Part shown: piece after piece, positions 34,682-41,301 of the stretch | Position numbering within the stretch: the stretch's first letter is position 1 | How the letters are laid out: each line of letters opens with the position of its first letter | Assembly (NCBI GenBank): GCA_019136105.1 | Contig: JAGVUU010000297.1 | Location: 1-42,630 of the forward strand | Reading direction: 5' to 3' | Origin: Gammaproteobacteria bacterium | Lineage (GTDB): Bacteria; Pseudomonadota; Gammaproteobacteria; Steroidobacterales; Steroidobacteraceae | Length of the DNA stretch: 42,630 bases | Position numbers and translations under genes: made by a program | Notes under the pieces: model-generated | Database searches by the model: none | The model's input: the letters and a program-made list of their open reading frames with translations, nothing else | Told to the model about the DNA's origin: nothing

Positions 34682-34920
34682 AACTGCGCATGCTGACGGG
34701 CATCGCACTGGTCGTCCTGGCGGCGAGTGGTTGCGGGCTGAAGGGGCCGCTCTACTTGCCGGAGAAGTCGGACGTCACGATCCGTCCGGCGCCAGCCGCA
34801 ACACCGCCGGAGGCATCGGCCGAGCCCGCGCCCGCCACCGAGCCGAAGCCTGCACCGGAGCCCGCGCAGAAACCGGAAGAGCCGCCGAAGGATCCCCAGG
34901 CCGGACCCAACCGTGGCTGA
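34678..34920 (+). CDS. lptM: LPS-assembly lipoprotein LptM (YifL-like) with Pro/Ala/Glu-rich tail
   Basis: LAASGCGLKGPLYLP compares with E. coli YifL LTGCGLKGPLYFP. The GTG overlaps the thioesterase stop, and the lptM stop overlaps the polA GTG start. Confidence 0.7.
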   Translation: MKLRMLTGIALVVLAASGCGLKGPLYLPEKSDVTIRPAPAATPPEASAEPAPATEPKPAPEPAQKPEEPPKDPQAGPNRG

Positions 34921-37672
34921 GCCGCGCACGCTCGTCCTGGTGGACGGCTCGTCGTACCTGTACCGGGCCTTCCACGCACTGCCGCCGCTCACCAACTCGC
35001 AAGGTGAACCCACGGGGGCGGTCCTCGGCGTGCTCAACATGCTGCAGAAGCTGCTCAAGGAGCAGGACCCGCCGCTGATCGGCGTGGTGTTCGACGCGCC
35101 GGGCAAGACGTTCCGCGACGAACTGTTCGCCGAGTACAAAGCCCATCGCCCGCCGATGCCCGACGACCTGCGGGCGCAGGTCGACCCGCTCATCACTGCC
35201 GTCGAGGCGCTGGGCCTGCCGCTGCTGCGGGTGCCGGGTGTCGAGGCCGACGACGTGATCGGCACGCTCGCGCGCCGTGCGGCGCAAGACGGCCTGCGAG
35301 TGCTCATCTCCACCGGCGACAAGGACATGGCGCAGCTGGTGGACGACCGCGTCACGCTGGTCAACACGATGACCGATTCGTCGCTCGACCGCGCGGGCGT
35401 GAAGATCAAGTTCGACGTCTACCCCGAGCAGATCGTCGACTACCTCGCGCTGGTCGGCGACACCTCGGACAACATCCCGGGCGTGCCGAAAGTCGGCCCG
35501 AAGACCGCGGCGAAGTGGCTCAACCAGTACACGACGCTCGACAACCTGCTCGCGCACCAGGACGAGATCGAGGGCAAGGTGGGCGAGAGCCTGCGCGCGC
35601 ACACCGCCGACCTCGCCCTGTCACGGCAGCTCGCCACGATCGACTGCGCACTCGAGCTCGAGCTGAAGCCGGACGAATTGCGGCGCCGCGACCCCGACGT
35701 GCCGCGCCTGCGCGAGCTGTTCACGAAGCTCGAGCTGCGTTCGCTGCTGAGGCAGTTGCCGGGCGCGACGGCGGAGCCGCCGCCGCTGCCTTCCGACCAA
35801 CCCTCCACGCAGCCCTCCCCCGCGGTGGCGGCAGCAAGCGCCCAGAGCTCGCGTGAGGCGTTCCCGCGCCACTACGAAACCGTCCTGACCGAGGAGCAGC
35901 TCGACGCCTGGCTCGAACGCCTGCGCAACGCCCAGGTCTTCGCGTTCGACACCGAGACCACGTCGCTCGACTACATGCAGGCCGAGATCGTGGGTGTGTC
36001 GTTCTGCGTCGAGCCCGGCCACGCGGCCTACGTGCCGCTCGCGCACACCTGCCCGGGCGCACCCGTCCAGCTGAATCGCGAGGCCGTGCTCGGGAAGCTC
36101 AAGCCGCTGCTCGAGGACGCGTCGCGGCCGAAGCTCGGCCATCACCTGAAGTACGACGCGCACGTCCTGCGCAATCATGGCATCGAGCTCCGGGGCATGC
36201 GCTACGACTCGATGCTCGAATCGTACGTGCTGAACAGCACGGCCACGCGCCACGACCTCGACTCGACCGCGAAACATTACCTCGGCGTCGACACGATCCA
36301 CTACGAAGACGTGGCCGGCAAGGGCGCGAAGCAGCTGCCGTTCAGCGAAGTGCCGGTCGAGAAGGCCGCGGAGTATTCCGCCGAGGATTCCGACGTCTCG
36401 CTGCAACTGCACCGCGCGCTGTGGGCGGAACTCGAGCGCCTGCCGCGACTCAAGCAGCTGTACGAGGAGATCGAGCAGCCGCTCGTGCCCGTGCTGCTCG
36501 ACATGGAGCACCTGGGCGTGCTGATCGACACGGCGATGCTGCGCAAGCAGAGCCACGAGATCGCGAAGAGCCTGATGGCGCTCGAGCAGTCGGCGCACGC
36601 CGCTGCAGGCTCGCCGTTCAACCTCGACTCGCCGAAGCAGCTGCAGGAAATCCTGTTCGGCAGGCTCGGCCTGCCGGTGAGCCGCAAGACGGCGACCGGC
36701 CAGCCCTCCACCGCGGAGGACGTGCTCGAGGAGCTTGCGACCGACTACGAGTTGCCGCGCATCATCCTCGAATACCGCGGGCTCGCGAAGCTCAAGTCCA
36801 CGTACACCGACAAGCTGCCCGGCCAGGTGGACCCGCGCACGGGCCGCGTGCACACGTCGTATCACCAGGCCGTTGCCGCCACGGGGCGGCTCTCGTCCAC
36901 CGACCCGAACCTGCAGAACATCCCGGTGCGCACGCCCGAGGGCAGGCGCATCCGCCAGGCATTCATCGCACCGCCCGGTCACGTGCTGATGGCGGCCGAT
37001 TACTCGCAGATCGAGCTGCGCATCATGGCGCACCTCTCGGGCGACGCGAGCCTGCTGCGCGCGTTCGCCGAGGATCGCGACATCCACCAGGCGACCGCGG
37101 CTGAGGTGTTCGGCCTCGAGGCCTCGGCCGTCACCGCCGACCAGCGTCGCGCCGCGAAGGCGATCAACTTCGGCCTGATCTACGGCATGTCGGCGTTCGG
37201 GCTCGCACGCCAGCTCGGCATCGAGCGTGGCGCTGCACAGAAGTACGTGGACCTCTACTTCGAGCGCTACCCCGGGGTGAAGCGCTACATGGACGACACG
37301 CGCGCCCAGGCCCGCGAACAGGGTTTCGTCGAGACGGTGTTTGGACGGCGGCTCTACCTGCCCGACATCCGTTCCCGCAACCAGGGGCTGCGCCAGTATG
37401 CCGAGCGCAGCGCCATCAACGCACCGATGCAGGGCACCGCCGCCGACATCATCAAGCGCGCGATGATCGACGTGCACGGCTGGCTCGCCCGCGGCGAGAT
37501 GCCGGCGCGGCTCGTCATGCAGGTGCACGACGAACTCGTGCTCGAGGTGCGCGAAGACGCGATCGGCGACGTGGAGCGCGGCGTCCGCGAGCGCATGGCA
37601 TCGGCGGCCGAGCTGCGGGTGCCGCTCAAGGTGGATATCGGCCGCGGCCCGCATTGGGACGCCGCCCACTAG
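34913..37672 (+). CDS. polA: DNA polymerase I
   Basis: 919 aa. 5'-nuclease N-terminus LVDGSSYLYRAFHA. 3'-5' exonuclease FAFDTETTSLD. Polymerase motifs DYSQIELR, RRAAKAINFGLIYG and QVHDELV. Confidence 0.97.
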   Translation: MAEPRTLVLVDGSSYLYRAFHALPPLTNSQGEPTGAVLGVLNMLQKLLKEQDPPLIGVVFDAPGKTFRDELFAEYKAHRPPMPDDLRAQVDPLITAVEALGLPLLRVPGVEADDVIGTLARRAAQDGLRVLISTGDKDMAQLVDDRVTLVNTMTDSSLDRAGVKIKFDVYPEQIVDYLALVGDTSDNIPGVPKVGPKTAAKWLNQYTTLDNLLAHQDEIEGKVGESLRAHTADLALSRQLATIDCALELELKPDELRRRDPDVPRLRELFTKLELRSLLRQLPGATAEPPPLPSDQPSTQPSPAVAAASAQSSREAFPRHYETVLTEEQLDAWLERLRNAQVFAFDTETTSLDYMQAEIVGVSFCVEPGHAAYVPLAHTCPGAPVQLNREAVLGKLKPLLEDASRPKLGHHLKYDAHVLRNHGIELRGMRYDSMLESYVLNSTATRHDLDSTAKHYLGVDTIHYEDVAGKGAKQLPFSEVPVEKAAEYSAEDSDVSLQLHRALWAELERLPRLKQLYEEIEQPLVPVLLDMEHLGVLIDTAMLRKQSHEIAKSLMALEQSAHAAAGSPFNLDSPKQLQEILFGRLGLPVSRKTATGQPSTAEDVLEELATDYELPRIILEYRGLAKLKSTYTDKLPGQVDPRTGRVHTSYHQAVAATGRLSSTDPNLQNIPVRTPEGRRIRQAFIAPPGHVLMAADYSQIELRIMAHLSGDASLLRAFAEDRDIHQATAAEVFGLEASAVTADQRRAAKAINFGLIYGMSAFGLARQLGIERGAAQKYVDLYFERYPGVKRYMDDTRAQAREQGFVETVFGRRLYLPDIRSRNQGLRQYAERSAINAPMQGTAADIIKRAMIDVHGWLARGEMPARLVMQVHDELVLEVREDAIGDVERGVRERMASAAELRVPLKVDIGRGPHWDAAH

Positions 37673-37852
37673 ACGCGGTCCAACGGCCCATTTTGTTGCC
37701 TCTTGGCAACGATTCCAGCCTATGCGCTTCCGCGTATGCGCGAGCGTACGTTTCGGGCGTAGCATTTGCGTCACAGGGAGAGCTCGGCCGACACGTTGGC
37801 CTCGCGGATGTCCCGCCCCAATGCGCTGCCGGCCGTCATTGGAGGAATCACC

Positions 37853-38359
37853 ATGAGATTCATCTTTGCGATCGTCGCCGCTGCAGCGTTCGCGATTTCG
37901 CCGGCCATGGCTGCCGAAAATGGCCCGTACATCGGAGCCGGCATCGGTGATTTCGGCGTCAAGGTCGACGGCTTCGACGCAAGCGACACCGGCTTCAAGG
38001 TGTTCGGCGGCTACCGGTTCATGGACTACTTCGCGGCCGAACTCGAGTACATCGACGGTGGCACCGCGGAAGACGGCGGGTTCGAGATCGACGTTTCCGG
38101 CTGGAACCTCTCCGGCATTGGCAGGCTGCCGATCGGCGAGAAGTTCAATGTGTTCGCCAAGCTTGGCATGATCTTCTGGGACGCCGACCTGGGCGGCATC
38201 GCCGGCGGCAGCGAGAGCGGCGAAGACTTCTCCTGGGGCATCGGCGCAGGCTATTCGTTCACCGACCAGTTCGGCGTGCAGGTCGAGTACCAGGGCTTCG
38301 AGATCGAGGACGCCGACACGGTGGACATGATCTCGCTCGGAGCGAGCTGGCAGTTCTGA
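37853..38359 (+). CDS. Small outer-membrane beta-barrel protein (OMP_b-brl type), paralogue 1
   Basis: GGAGGA Shine-Dalgarno sequence. Signal peptide ...AISPAMA-AE. Alternating beta pattern. C-terminal ...ISLGASWQF aromatic terminus. Confidence 0.75.
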   Translation: MRFIFAIVAAAAFAISPAMAAENGPYIGAGIGDFGVKVDGFDASDTGFKVFGGYRFMDYFAAELEYIDGGTAEDGGFEIDVSGWNLSGIGRLPIGEKFNVFAKLGMIFWDADLGGIAGGSESGEDFSWGIGAGYSFTDQFGVQVEYQGFEIEDADTVDMISLGASWQF

Positions 38360-38479: not shown

Positions 38480-39010
38480 ATGCGTAAGCAGATCCTGACC
38501 GGACTCGTCGCCACATTGGCCCTGACCACGTTGCCCGCGGTCGCCGCGGACAACGGCATCTACCTCGGGGCCAGCGTCGGCCAGAGCGGTCTCCAGATCG
38601 ATGATTTCGACTACGACGCCAGCGCAACCGGCTACAAGATCATCGCCGGCTGGCGATTCCTCGATTGGCTGGCCGTCGAAGGCAACTACGTCGATTTCGG
38701 CTCGGGCGACGACAGGGTCGCGGGCACGAAGATCGAGACCGAAGCGGACGGCATCTCGCTGTCGGCAGTGGGTTTCCTGCCGGTCGGGCCCGTGGACCTG
38801 TTCGCCCGCGTGGGCGCGGTGGACTGGAGCGCCGACCTCTCGTCGCCGGGCTTGGGCAGCGGCAGCGATGACGGCACCGACCTGACTTACGGCATCGGCG
38901 CCCAGTTCCGCGTCTGGAGCCTGAGCATTCGCGCCGAGTACGAAATGTTCGACATCTCGGACGCGGATCTCGACATGATCTCGTTGGGCGTCACCTGGAC
39001 GTTCCTCTGA
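38480..39010 (+). CDS. Small outer-membrane beta-barrel protein, paralogue 2
   Basis: AGGAGGG Shine-Dalgarno sequence. Signal peptide ...LPAVA-AD. Collinear similarity to paralogue 1 (NG.Y.GA..G......D.FD....TG+K...G+RF.D......Y.D.G ... D+ISLG..W.F). Confidence 0.75.
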   Translation: MRKQILTGLVATLALTTLPAVAADNGIYLGASVGQSGLQIDDFDYDASATGYKIIAGWRFLDWLAVEGNYVDFGSGDDRVAGTKIETEADGISLSAVGFLPVGPVDLFARVGAVDWSADLSSPGLGSGSDDGTDLTYGIGAQFRVWSLSIRAEYEMFDISDADLDMISLGVTWTFL

Positions 39011-39059
39011 GAACAGCCTGAAGCGGCGGCCCTGCGTGGTCGCCGTGGCTGACTGACCG

Positions 39060-39095
39060 GGGCCCGCTTCGCAGCGGGCCCTTTTTTATTTTTTG
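39060..39095 (+). terminator. Strong intrinsic terminator: GGGCCCGC-ttcgca-GCGGGCCC followed by TTTTTTATTTTTT
   Basis: 8-bp GC stem followed by a 13-nt T-rich run. Confidence 0.85.
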
Positions 39096-39190
39096 TTGAT
39101 TATCAACCCAAATATAGTCAGTCCGGAAACGTATTTAAGAAATCTGGATTGATTTTCAATGGGTGGCGCGATTCCTCCAGACGGAGGCAC

Positions 39191-39218
39191 GGAACTTCCA
39201 CTGGACCGCCCGCTCTAA
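39191..39218 (+). promoter_or_regulatory. Extracytoplasmic-stress sigma (sigmaE/AlgU-type) promoter: GGAACTT-N16-TCTAA
   Basis: The -35 is an exact GGAACTT (39191-39197). The spacer is 16 nt. The -10 TCTAA (39214-39218) compares with the consensus TCAAA/TCTGA. Confidence 0.5.
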
Positions 39219-39224
39219 GTTTTC

Positions 39225-39347
39225 GGGCATCCTGCGATGCCCAACGCCGGCCTACCTCCCTGGGCCTGGCGTTCACCCGGTCATCCCCCAACGCCGGGTT
39301 TGCCTTGCCCGGTTGGATCCGCTGGTCCAACCGGGTTTTCTTTTTCT
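39225..39347 (+). ncRNA. Candidate sigmaE-dependent small RNA of about 120 nt, at the Spot 42/ErsA-equivalent position
   Basis: The predicted TSS lies about 7 nt after the -10. Stem-loops: SL1 GGGCATC-ctgc-GATGCCC; SL2 AACGCCGGCC...GGCCtGGCGTT with loop UACCUCCCUG; SL3 CCCGG...CCGGG with loop UCAUCCCCCAACG. Terminator CCCGGTTGGA...TCCAACCGGG followed by TTTTCTTTTTCT (39308-39347). Convergent with engB and antisense to its last ~22 codons. Confidence 0.45.
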
Positions 39348-39934
39348 GGACGACTCGCCAGCAGCCGCAGCAGTGCTCCCCGGGCCTCGCCCACGCCGTC
39401 CCCGTTCAGCGCCGAGAAGAGCTGCACCGTCACCGCCGGACCCACCGCCTTCTGCACCGCCGCCATCGCCTGCCTGCCCGCGCCCCGGCCGAGCTTGTCG
39501 GCCTTGGTGAGCACGATGTGCACGGGTACCGACTGCGCCAGCGCCAGCTCGAGCATCGACTGGTCATGCTCGGTGAGCGGGTGGCGCACGTCCATCACCA
39601 CGATCGCGCCGCGCAGGCACTCGCGACGCTTGAAGTACCCCTCGATCAGCGTGCCCCAGTGCTCGCGCATCTGGCCCGGCACGGCCGCGAACCCATAGCC
39701 GGGCAGGTCCACGAGCCGCCGGCCGGCCTCGAGCTCGAAGAAGTTGATCAGGCGGGTTGCCCCGGGGGTCTTGCTGGTCTTGGCGAGGCCCTTGCGCTGG
39801 ACGATCGCGTTGATGGCAGTCGACTTGCCGGCGTTCGACCGGCCGGCCACGGCGACCTCGGCGCCGGTGTCCGGAGGGAACTGCCGGGCCTGGTGCGCGC
39901 TGGTCAGGAAGCGGACGCGGGGGAAGGCAGACAT
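39281..39934 (-). CDS. engB: Ribosome biogenesis GTP-binding protein YihA/EngB
   Basis: The internal ATG at 39934 gives MSAFPRVRFLTSAHQARQFP. G1 GRSNAGKST, DLPGYGFA and LTKADKL motifs. Confidence 0.9.
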   Translation of the reverse strand: MSAFPRVRFLTSAHQARQFPPDTGAEVAVAGRSNAGKSTAINAIVQRKGLAKTSKTPGATRLINFFELEAGRRLVDLPGYGFAAVPGQMREHWGTLIEGYFKRRECLRGAIVVMDVRHPLTEHDQSMLELALAQSVPVHIVLTKADKLGRGAGRQAMAAVQKAVGPAVTVQLFSALNGDGVGEARGALLRLLASRPEKENPVGPADPTGQGKPGVGG

Positions 39935-40015: not shown

Positions 40016-40624
40016 ATGTCCGCGAAGCTCGTCGCCGCCCTCTCGCTGGTGGCTTTCCTCGGCAGCGCTCCCGCATTCGCCGCAGGTTCCGTCGAAGCCG
40101 GCCAGGCCAAGTCCGCCACCTGCGGCGCCTGCCACGGCATGGACGGCAACAGCCTGAGCCCCGAATGGCCGAACCTCGCGGGCCAGCACGCCGGCTACAT
40201 CGAGAGCCAGCTCCGGGCGTTCAAGGCGGGCGAGCGCAAGAACGACCTGATGGCGCCGATGGCGATGATCCTGTCCGACGAGGACATGGCCGACCTTGCG
40301 GCGTTTTTCTCGACCCAGAAGGCCCGTGGCGGCGAGACCGAGCCGTCGAAGCTGGCGCTCGGCCAGCGCATCTACCGCGGCGGCGACGTGCAGCGGGGCC
40401 TGATTGCCTGCGCCGGCTGCCACGGCCCGAACGGCCGCGGCAACCCGCTCGCGGGCTATGCGTCGGTCCAGGGCCAGCATGCCGTCTACCTCGCAAACCA
40501 GCTGCGCGCCTTCAAGTCTGGCGCCCGCGCCACCGACCCGAACCAGATGATGCGCAACGTCGCGGCGCTGCTCACCGACGAAGAGATCGACGCGGTTGCG
40601 TCCTACATGCAGGGCCTGCGTTGA
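40016..40624 (+). CDS. Dihaem cytochrome c4
   Basis: Signal peptide, then two CxxCH haem sites (CGACH and CAGCH), each followed by Met-containing segments. The engB / c4 / dsbA synteny is classical. Confidence 0.9.
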   Translation: MSAKLVAALSLVAFLGSAPAFAAGSVEAGQAKSATCGACHGMDGNSLSPEWPNLAGQHAGYIESQLRAFKAGERKNDLMAPMAMILSDEDMADLAAFFSTQKARGGETEPSKLALGQRIYRGGDVQRGLIACAGCHGPNGRGNPLAGYASVQGQHAVYLANQLRAFKSGARATDPNQMMRNVAALLTDEEIDAVASYMQGLR

Positions 40625-40656
40625 ACCGGAAGGCCCGCGCCCGGTCATAGCCATTC

Positions 40657-41301
40657 ATGAGCACGTTCATCTCCCGCATTGCCCGCCCGCTCGTGGCGGG
40701 CCTGATGGTCCTCGCGGCCCAGTCCGCCCTCGCGGTCGACCTCGTCGAGGGTGTCAACTACAAGACGCTGAAGCCGGCCGTGCCCACGAACGTGGCGCCC
40801 GGCAAGGTCGAGGTCGTCGAGGTGTTCTGGTACGCCTGCGGCCATTGCTACCTGCTCGAGCCCAAGCTCGAAGCGTGGGAGAAGAAGGGCAAGCCCGCGA
40901 ACGTGGAGCTGATCCGCATGCCGGCCGTCTGGAACGAGCTGCTCAAGACCCACGCGCGGCTGTTCTACACGATCGAGATCCTCGGCCGGCCCGAACTGAA
41001 CAACGAGGCGTTCCGCGAGATCAACGTGCGCGGCAACCGCCTCGACACGCCCGACAAGATCGAGGCGTTCTTCACCTCGCGCGGCGTGCCCAAGGCCGAC
41101 TTCCAGAAGGCCTTCTCGGGCTTTGCGGTCGAATCGAAGCTCGCGCGCGCCACCGACCTCAACAAGCGCTACCGCATCACCAGCACGCCGACCGTGGTCG
41201 TGAACGGCAAGTACGTCACCGACGCCGGCATGGCGGGCGGCGAGGACAAGCTGTTCCAGGTGATCAACGCGCTCGCGGCGCGGGAGAAGCCGGCCGGCTG
41301 A
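40657..41301 (+). CDS. dsbA: Thiol:disulfide interchange protein DsbA
   Basis: Signal peptide, FWYACGHCY active site (CxxC) and TPTVVVNGKY cis-Pro loop region. Confidence 0.9.
   Translation: MSTFISRIARPLVAGLMVLAAQSALAVDLVEGVNYKTLKPAVPTNVAPGKVEVVEVFWYACGHCYLLEPKLEAWEKKGKPANVELIRMPAVWNELLKTHARLFYTIEILGRPELNNEAFREINVRGNRLDTPDKIEAFFTSRGVPKADFQKAFSGFAVESKLARATDLNKRYRITSTPTVVVNGKYVTDAGMAGGEDKLFQVINALAAREKPAG

Follow-up and report, generated by a model that had tools for sequence, protein, structure and literature searches.

The window considered here is a 42.6 kb stretch of DNA taken at its full length (42,630 nt; contig JAGVUU010000297.1 of a Gammaproteobacteria bacterium, Steroidobacteraceae), and the element of interest is a predicted small RNA (sRNA) gene of ~121-123 nt on its plus strand (39225-39347), located between polA and engB. 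The gene is preceded by a promoter of the extracytoplasmic function (ECF) sigma-E (RpoE/AlgU) type (39191-39218, plus strand; -35 GGAACTT, 16-nt spacer, -10 TCTAA). Judged from its fold, its conservation and its context, a regulatory RNA of ~120 nt is very probably real at this position.

The polA-engB locus and its relatives

Upstream of the sRNA gene and on the same strand, Pfam identifies polA (34913-37672) followed, as a preliminary description of this DNA had proposed, by two genes for small OmpA-like beta-barrel outer membrane proteins (OMPs), namely OMP1 (~37808-38359) and OMP2 (38480-39010). A terminator scan places an intrinsic terminator behind OMP2 on the plus strand, with a hairpin at 39059-39082 (10-bp GC-rich stem) and then TTTTTTATTTT up to 39095, ~110 nt upstream of the sRNA promoter. 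Because OMP2 has this separate terminator, the sRNA element is not simply the end of the OMP transcript and is, in the window, an independent transcription unit. On the minus strand, engB/yihA (39281-39934; 217 aa, Pfam MMR_HSR1) is convergent with the sRNA gene, and cytochrome c4 (a dihaem cytochrome c) and dsbA are found beyond it by Pfam. Model R1, a covariance model built from the window's clade only, scores the element at 143 bits and detects no further copies of it in the window.

Relatives of the element were retrieved in two ways. The closest homologues of the window's EngB are proteins from Steroidobacteraceae metagenome-assembled genomes (MAGs), and a scan anchored on EngB, with one genome per species, yielded 12 loci. 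All seven loci with an EngB of at least 55% identity have the element immediately behind engB and in opposite orientation to it, and an R1-detectable RNA convergent on engB is present in 11/11 proteobacterial engB loci retrieved via EngB alone. Metagenomes were scanned with the pattern CCTCCCTGNGN{7,16}CCCGGTCAN{0,1}TCCCC, which lies inside the second and third stem-loops (SL2-SL3) of the RNA; it matched at least 120 stretches, with one false positive (L061), and later counts refer to the matches listed. More than 100 homologues were thus collected from Steroidobacteraceae-like metagenomes and MAGs. Their synteny, established by tblastn with the window's proteins, is rigid: polA, zero to two small OMP genes and the sRNA gene, then convergent engB and cytochrome c4. 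The convergent arrangement of sRNA and engB that the preliminary description had pointed out is constant, engB being convergent downstream in all 114 loci having an EngB match, while one or more OMP genes lie upstream on the same strand in 100 loci, polA does so in 74, and 70 loci have a cytochrome c gene on the far side of engB. In one subclade (L005, L006, L016, L018, L034 and L075), the RNA directly follows polA, which gives the classical polA-sRNA-engB order.

In two other gammaproteobacterial MAGs (L007:5675-6069 and L009:5077-5492, both on the minus strand), R1 detects two related RNAs in tandem in the polA-engB interval, every copy with three C-rich loops, one of which belongs to the terminator. 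TGAACTT-N16-TCTCA/TCTTA precedes the engB-proximal (downstream) copy, and the polA-proximal (upstream) copy has a -35 element GAACTT/GAAGTT with an unclear -10 (ATATA/ATTAA). The divergent engB-cytochrome c pair (40016-41301 in the window; L008/L142-L156) is kept from Steroidobacteraceae-like Gammaproteobacteria to Thiobacillaceae; the next gene is dsbA in the window and resB in Thiobacillaceae.

Promoter and structure of the predicted RNA

The RpoE/AlgU (ECF02) consensus is GGAACTT-N16-TCAAA in E. coli and GAACTT-N16/17-TCTGA in P. aeruginosa. In the window, GGAACTT at 39191-39197 with TCTAA at 39214-39218 constitutes the sole match to GGAACTT-N16-TCNAA on both strands of the 42.6 kb when up to one mismatch is allowed (chance expectation 0.12 matches; at least one match in 11/100 shuffles), and a looser pattern returns the same single site. 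The promoter lies outside the metagenome search pattern, the relatives having been recovered through a pattern inside the RNA, and it is kept in 99/102 distinct relatives (upstream regions of the matches listed). Among these 102 regions, the -35 element reads GGAACTT in 81, TGAACTT in 16, GAAACTT in three and otherwise in two, and the spacer is 16 nt long in 89 and 17 nt in 10. The commoner -10 variants are TCTAA (60), TCCAA (14), TCAAA (8) and TCTTT (5), and the rarer ones TCTCA, TCTGA and TCAAT (three each), TCGAA (2) and TCCCA (1). The sequence of the spacer and all DNA 5' of the promoter vary among relatives. The near-consensus envelope-stress sigma promoter of the preliminary description is therefore present where it had been placed and conserved, and its consensus match and conservation suggest that the sRNA promoter depends on sigma-E. 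SL1 starts ~7 nt past the -10 element, so that the RNA would begin with a hairpin, with a predicted transcription start at ~39224-39226.

The DNA between the OMP2 terminator and the sRNA promoter (39083-39165) is AT-rich in an otherwise GC-rich window, with a GC content of ~46% across the 130 nt 5' of the -35 element. It contains two near-palindromes, TTGATTATCAA (39096-39106) and TTGATTTTCAA (39148-39158), which may represent a regulator site. Similar boxes (TTGATTATCGA and TTGATATTCGA) are found in a close relative (L130), the strict pattern being found in 2/104 upstream regions only.

With regard to the fold, RNAfold of 39225-39347 (plus strand) gives four hairpins as proposed, with a minimum free energy of -66 kcal/mol; dinucleotide shuffles reach -43.5 +/- 3.6 kcal/mol (z = -6.2), and 0/200 of them fold as well. 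SL1 (39225-39242) reads GGGCAUC-CUGC-GAUGCCC. SL2 (39243-39273) exposes the loop UACCUCCCUG (39253-39262), which includes the candidate seed CCUCCCUG (39255-39262), and SL3 (39275-39299) has a 7-bp stem and the loop CAUCCCCCAAC (39282-39292), which is likewise C-rich and a further candidate seed. The terminator scan places the sRNA's own intrinsic terminator at 39307-39347, with a stem at 39307-39336 followed by UUUCUUUUUCU (U-run TTTCTTTTTCT); the strong stem and U-run claimed in the preliminary description are both present, but the stem comprises 13 pairs, not 10. In the window, neither SL1 (loop CUGC) nor the terminator (loop CGCU) has a C-rich loop.

The three-hairpin model and the terminator agree with comparative data. 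RNAalifold of 97 distinct homologues (alignment A2, to which the following counts refer) recovers all four helices, and 98.5% of 3077 pair cells are standard pairs. Double changes, the compensatory changes that an alignment of relatives had been suggested to reveal, occur in 18/32 pairs (211 cells), and all five measures lie above every one of 500 shuffles; when the 3' partners are slid by 1-3 columns as a control, only 27-53% remain paired. All six consensus pairs of SL1 have changed on both sides (e.g., GAGCGUC/GACGCUC and GAGCGCC/GGCGCUC), and this hairpin is probably a protective 5' structure. Double changes also affect 7/8 stem pairs of SL2 and 5/11 consensus pairs of the sRNA terminator, one position of which is U-A in 61 copies and C-G in 33. 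A small open reading frame within the RNA was considered and rejected: it would start with the ATG at 39237 and run for 153 codons antisense to engB, but most relatives lack this ATG and have GACGCTC in SL1.

The C-rich loops CCUCCCUG and CAUCCCCC are invariant among relatives, although both formed part of the metagenome search pattern, and their invariance there is not independent. In the genome loci anchored on EngB, CCUCCCUG was not preselected. This loop of SL2 equals the consensus loop of the anti-hemB family and is a candidate seed resembling an anti-Shine-Dalgarno sequence.

Relationship to known small RNAs

The window yields no Rfam match at gathering thresholds, and by the standard of Rfam itself the RNA belongs to no family. 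At relaxed thresholds, anti-hemB and sX13 are the best matches, each model aligning over its whole length with the plus strand. With anti-hemB (RF02837, cut-off 49.5 bits), the window reaches 28.2 bits (E = 1.3e-4, 501-nt search), L001-L004 reach 30-32.5 bits and L005 and L006 46.2 and 45.3 bits; two Thiobacillus MAG loci from the EngB scan, L008 and L010, score above the cut-off (76 and 70 bits). Reciprocally, R1 matches these Rfam-positive Thiobacillus copies over their full length (39 and 35 bits; E of ~5e-9 and 5e-8 with a rough calibration). Both copies lie just past engB and convergent with it, in a context which in Thiobacillaceae is composed of resB, cytochrome c, engB, the sRNA gene on the other strand and hemB, so that engB and cytochrome c are the neighbours shared with the window and hemB stands in place of polA. 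The promoter is present in 5/5 distinct Thiobacillaceae copies, as GGAACT[TA]-N16/17-TC(AAT/CAT/TAT/TGA/AAC).

The window RNA and anti-hemB have in common the identical CCUCCCUG loop, then a second C-rich hairpin, then a terminator with a U-run, as well as a 5' hairpin ahead of the part modelled by Rfam, and the Thiobacillaceae copies share with the window the engB-cytochrome c4 context and the sigma-E-type promoter. They differ in that the window's host is a Steroidobacteraceae-like gammaproteobacterium and not a betaproteobacterium, that polA and OMP genes rather than a divergent hemB lie upstream, and that the window terminator has lost the C-rich motif of its loop and lies within the engB coding sequence. 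On the basis of reciprocal model matches, identical loop, promoter and synteny, the window RNA is judged to be a distant homologue of anti-hemB. The latter, which Weinberg described in 2007 as probably a non-coding RNA, with its strand left ambiguous (PMC1950547), corresponds to ncS04 of Burkholderia cenocepacia J2315, a 105 nt RNA confirmed by Northern blot that co-purifies with Hfq and whose gene orientation is given as '<- -> <-' (PMC5688073, PMC4603805). ncS04 has its own transcription start site (PMC4603805). In a 2026 preprint, anti-hemB is read as an antisense regulator of hemB or heme synthesis. No paper was found that links anti-hemB, ncS04 or sX13 to RpoE.

In its architecture, the window RNA also resembles sX13 of Xanthomonadaceae (RF02232; 22.5 bits in the window, E = 0.037, cut-off 50), with which it shares a length of ~115-120 nt, a position behind polA, stable hairpins that bear C-rich apical loops, and a gammaproteobacterial host (Xanthomonadaceae and Steroidobacteraceae, respectively). 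However, the window RNA has two C-rich loops (SL2 and SL3) and sX13 three, the downstream neighbour of sX13 in Xcv is the hypothetical protein gene XCV4199 (PMC3771888), and sX13 is described as constitutive, with no sigma-E promoter reported for it. The 115 nt sX13 is 'always downstream of polA' and Hfq-independent (PMC3771888), accumulates at 37 deg C and in high salt, and uses its three C-rich loops to repress mRNAs that carry a G-rich motif close to their start codon (PMC3771888; Schmidtke 2013). Regarding such resemblances, the L007 copies give sub-threshold matches of 28-35 bits to ar14, CcsR1, ErsA, sX13 and anti-hemB; since many families with C-rich loops are matched, these cross-matches reflect a shared motif style and do not prove homology.

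The preliminary description had drawn its parallels with Spot 42 and ErsA and did not name anti-hemB or sX13; the covariance-model search that it had proposed for the former two gave no match. Spot 42 (spf; RF00021) of enterobacteria occupies the same slot, and the order polA, spf and convergent yihA/engB in E. coli was confirmed. It is nevertheless an Hfq-dependent regulator of carbon metabolism, and membership of the window RNA in its family was rejected for want of any Rfam match and of any sequence or model similarity. The title of a reference cited in PMC3771888 describes Spot 42 as repressed by cAMP-CRP. For ErsA (Pseudomon-1, RF01719) of Pseudomonas aeruginosa, the parallel holds for location and promoter type: ErsA is driven by sigma-22/AlgU (PMC5819304), whose promoter motif is matched in the window, and its first report listed it as a 'Spot42' RNA in antisense to PA5492/engB (PMC3349714). 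It does not extend to relatedness, as no Rfam match to ErsA was obtained at E <= 10 over 38950-39450, and ErsA pairs through its unstructured nt 26-56 (PMC5819304) and not through C-rich hairpin loops.

MicA, RybB and MicL of E. coli and Salmonella are sigma-E-dependent sRNAs that use 5'-end or linear seeds rather than C-rich loops. They share with the window RNA a sigma-E consensus promoter, a length of ~80-120 nt, an intrinsic terminator and an expected repression of envelope proteins, but no homology.

The window RNA is thus of an already known kind, a sub-threshold addition to the C-rich-loop sRNAs of anti-hemB/sX13 type found at engB. What is new is that the sigma-E-type promoter is conserved, that engB is the partner throughout, and that the EngB tail is overprinted, as dealt with below. 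Although it is missed entirely by standard annotation at Rfam gathering thresholds, it is among the best-supported features of the window, and with it the anti-hemB/ncS04 family, whose function is uncharacterised, reaches into Steroidobacteraceae-like Gammaproteobacteria. The constant partner of the family is engB, not hemB, and its conserved sigma-E-type promoter provides a concrete candidate regulator for ncS04. One chromosomal slot connects four separately named sRNAs, namely Spot 42, ErsA, sX13 and anti-hemB. It can be speculated, though we regard it as rather doubtful, that anti-hemB/ncS04, the window RNA, the tandem gammaproteobacterial copies, sX13 and perhaps ErsA and Spot 42 descend from one ancient engB-convergent sRNA gene, originally driven by the envelope-stress sigma factor, whose persistent 3'-end opposition to engB would functionally link envelope stress to the expression of a ribosome-assembly GTPase; if true, anti-hemB would have to be re-interpreted as a sigma-E regulon sRNA tied to engB.

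A few minor matches were also recorded. The OMP2 terminator region (39022-39096, plus strand) matches suhB/mmgR (22.2 bits against an Rfam cut-off of 41) and further sRNA models dominated by their terminators, in each case weakly and below threshold; such matches are most likely a chance resemblance to a hairpin with a U-run. Among viral contigs, eight pattern matches were obtained, none of which is anti-hemB by Rfam. In IMG/VR, the 16-mer CTCCTCCCTGAGCGGG lies directly beside tRNA genes (L139:3023-3124 and L141:1670-1768), and one viral contig bearing it also carries an RT-15 RNA (L139:11080-11271, 156 bits), the CTCCTCCCTGAGCGGG sites showing no relation to anti-hemB by Rfam. No sX13 match was obtained in viral contigs with a degenerate pattern or in plasmids with the Rfam consensus.

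Candidate function and overlap with engB

We consider it probable that the sigma-E-type promoter drives a trans-acting sRNA that recognises mRNAs through its exposed CCUCCCUG and CAUCCCCC loops. Envelope stress would activate the sigma factor, and transcription would start ~6-8 nt past TCTAA, directly at SL1. The two loops would then pair with G-rich, Shine-Dalgarno-like sites of mRNAs and block translation initiation, a mechanism proposed because of the sX13 experiments and because the loops are complementary to GGAGG. The terminator with its U-tail would end the RNA and may bind Hfq. The gene is a distant homologue of beta-proteobacterial anti-hemB/ncS04 and, as in that family, is always convergent on engB; in the window's clade, the engB reading frame has been extended across the terminator.

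Several points weigh against this proposal. For the window and its close relatives, expression, sigma-E dependence, seed function and targets are inferred from sequence, the sigma factor being assigned on consensus alone in a window without an rpoE gene, and similar AAC/TC motifs are recognised by other ECF sigma factors too. The SL3 stem has no double change in A2 and includes three invariant pairs; its 5' arm lay within the search pattern, both of its ends alternate between G-U and A-U, and the lack of covariation is uninformative for or against pairing. The anti-hemB and sX13 scores lie under the curated Rfam cut-offs, and ncS04 is unchanged by osmotic stress, low pH and low iron in B. cenocepacia (PMC5688073), which, for these osmotic, low-pH and low-iron conditions, does not suggest strong stress induction. 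Finally, no conserved target was found. The ribosome-binding site of the window's OMP2, CCAGGAGGGUA, pairs at 10/11 positions with the SL2 loop (-18.4 kcal/mol), the best among six local start regions, but this match is not kept in relatives. The OMP genes were rejected as a conserved target, the start regions of OMP2 in relatives being ordinary Shine-Dalgarno sequences whose duplex energies equal those of polA (median -10.6 vs -11.0).

A role mainly in cis, in which the convergent RNA, by antisense pairing or transcriptional collision, would lower engB under the stress sigma factor while the loops are secondary, appears unlikely to be the principal one, although it is compatible with trans-action. 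The 47-67 nt of perfect complementarity to the 3' end of the engB mRNA, the convergence on engB in 114/114 loci with an EngB match, with an overlap of 43-66 nt in nearly all clade loci with a traceable engB frame, and the position of engB as the one constant neighbour across gamma and beta lineages are all in keeping with it, as are the lack of an engB terminator between the engB stop codon and the sRNA gene and the classification of ErsA, likewise, as antisense to PA5492/engB (PMC3349714). However, the RNA lies beyond the engB stop codon in Thiobacillus and spf and yihA are 123 nt apart in E. coli, and the coding-sequence overlap is therefore lineage-specific; moreover, the loops lie mostly outside the overlap in the window's clade, and pure antisense action would leave the invariant single-stranded loops unexplained, an argument weakened by their presence in the metagenome search pattern.

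Two further explanations dispense with a plus-strand sRNA gene of its own. That the hairpins merely belong to the OMP operon or to polA, as 3' untranslated region (UTR) and terminator, behind an inactive promoter-like motif, is very improbable: the window's OMP2 has its own strong terminator upstream of the promoter, the promoter is conserved and correctly spaced in ~100 relatives and also in lineages with polA or a divergent hemB upstream, and the homologous ncS04 has a start site of its own (PMC4603805). This explanation would fit L040, L086 and L100, where the -35 element lies 9 nt past the OMP2 stop codon and there is no separate terminator. In these three loci, OMP2 transcripts must read into the sRNA element and probably end at the sRNA terminator; a 3'-UTR origin of the RNA is also conceivable there. 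Less credible still is a structure acting on the minus strand, as an engB 3'-UTR element or a cis-regulator similar to the 'hemB motif'. The reverse strand does fold well (z = -4.8), and the original hemB/anti-hemB description saw comparable covariation on both strands and left the strand open (PMC1950547), but in A2 347 G·U cells turn into A·C mismatches on the minus strand, which lowers pairing from 98.5% to 87.4%, and the U-run and promoter are on the plus strand only. The G·U asymmetry and the U-run therefore fix the plus strand, and minus-strand function was rejected on account of the asymmetry.

The overlap of the trans-acting candidate with engB has left its trace in the protein. In the window, the RNA overlaps the engB coding sequence in antisense over ~65-67 nt, in keeping with the ~67 nt of the preliminary description, the engB stop codon (39281-39283, minus strand) lying at the stem-loop junction of SL3. 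The last ~22 codons of engB are the antisense of the linker, terminator and U-run, and the C-terminus of EngB is PEKENPVGPADPTGQGKPGVGG. In nearly all clade members with a traceable frame, the engB frame crosses the sRNA terminator, and the overlap is 43-66 nt. When overlap lengths are limited to the two dominant classes and tail residues recounted by motif anchoring, these classes are 47 nt (211-aa EngB, ending in ...KETPVGPADPTGAS) and 64-66 nt (217 aa, ending in ...GKPGVGG), the value measured in the window being 65 nt. The tail peptide KETPVGPADPTG is the antisense reading of the U-run and hairpin, and its two variable residues vary in concert, 61 copies having V..T, 29 A..A and three A..T, mirroring the U-A, C-G and U·G states, respectively, of one terminator base pair. 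Since the tail residues follow the state of this pair, the RNA structure dictates the EngB protein tail, in line with the earlier suggestion that the odd tail is the antisense of the terminator hairpin; this is a case of overprinting in which an RNA terminator hairpin sets C-terminal residues of an essential GTPase, V..T becoming A..A as U-A becomes C-G. The 211- and 217-aa classes of EngB (L001-L132) differ only in the stop of the frame within the sRNA gene, which is either TAA in the linker between SL3 and the terminator or TGA in the SL3 loop.

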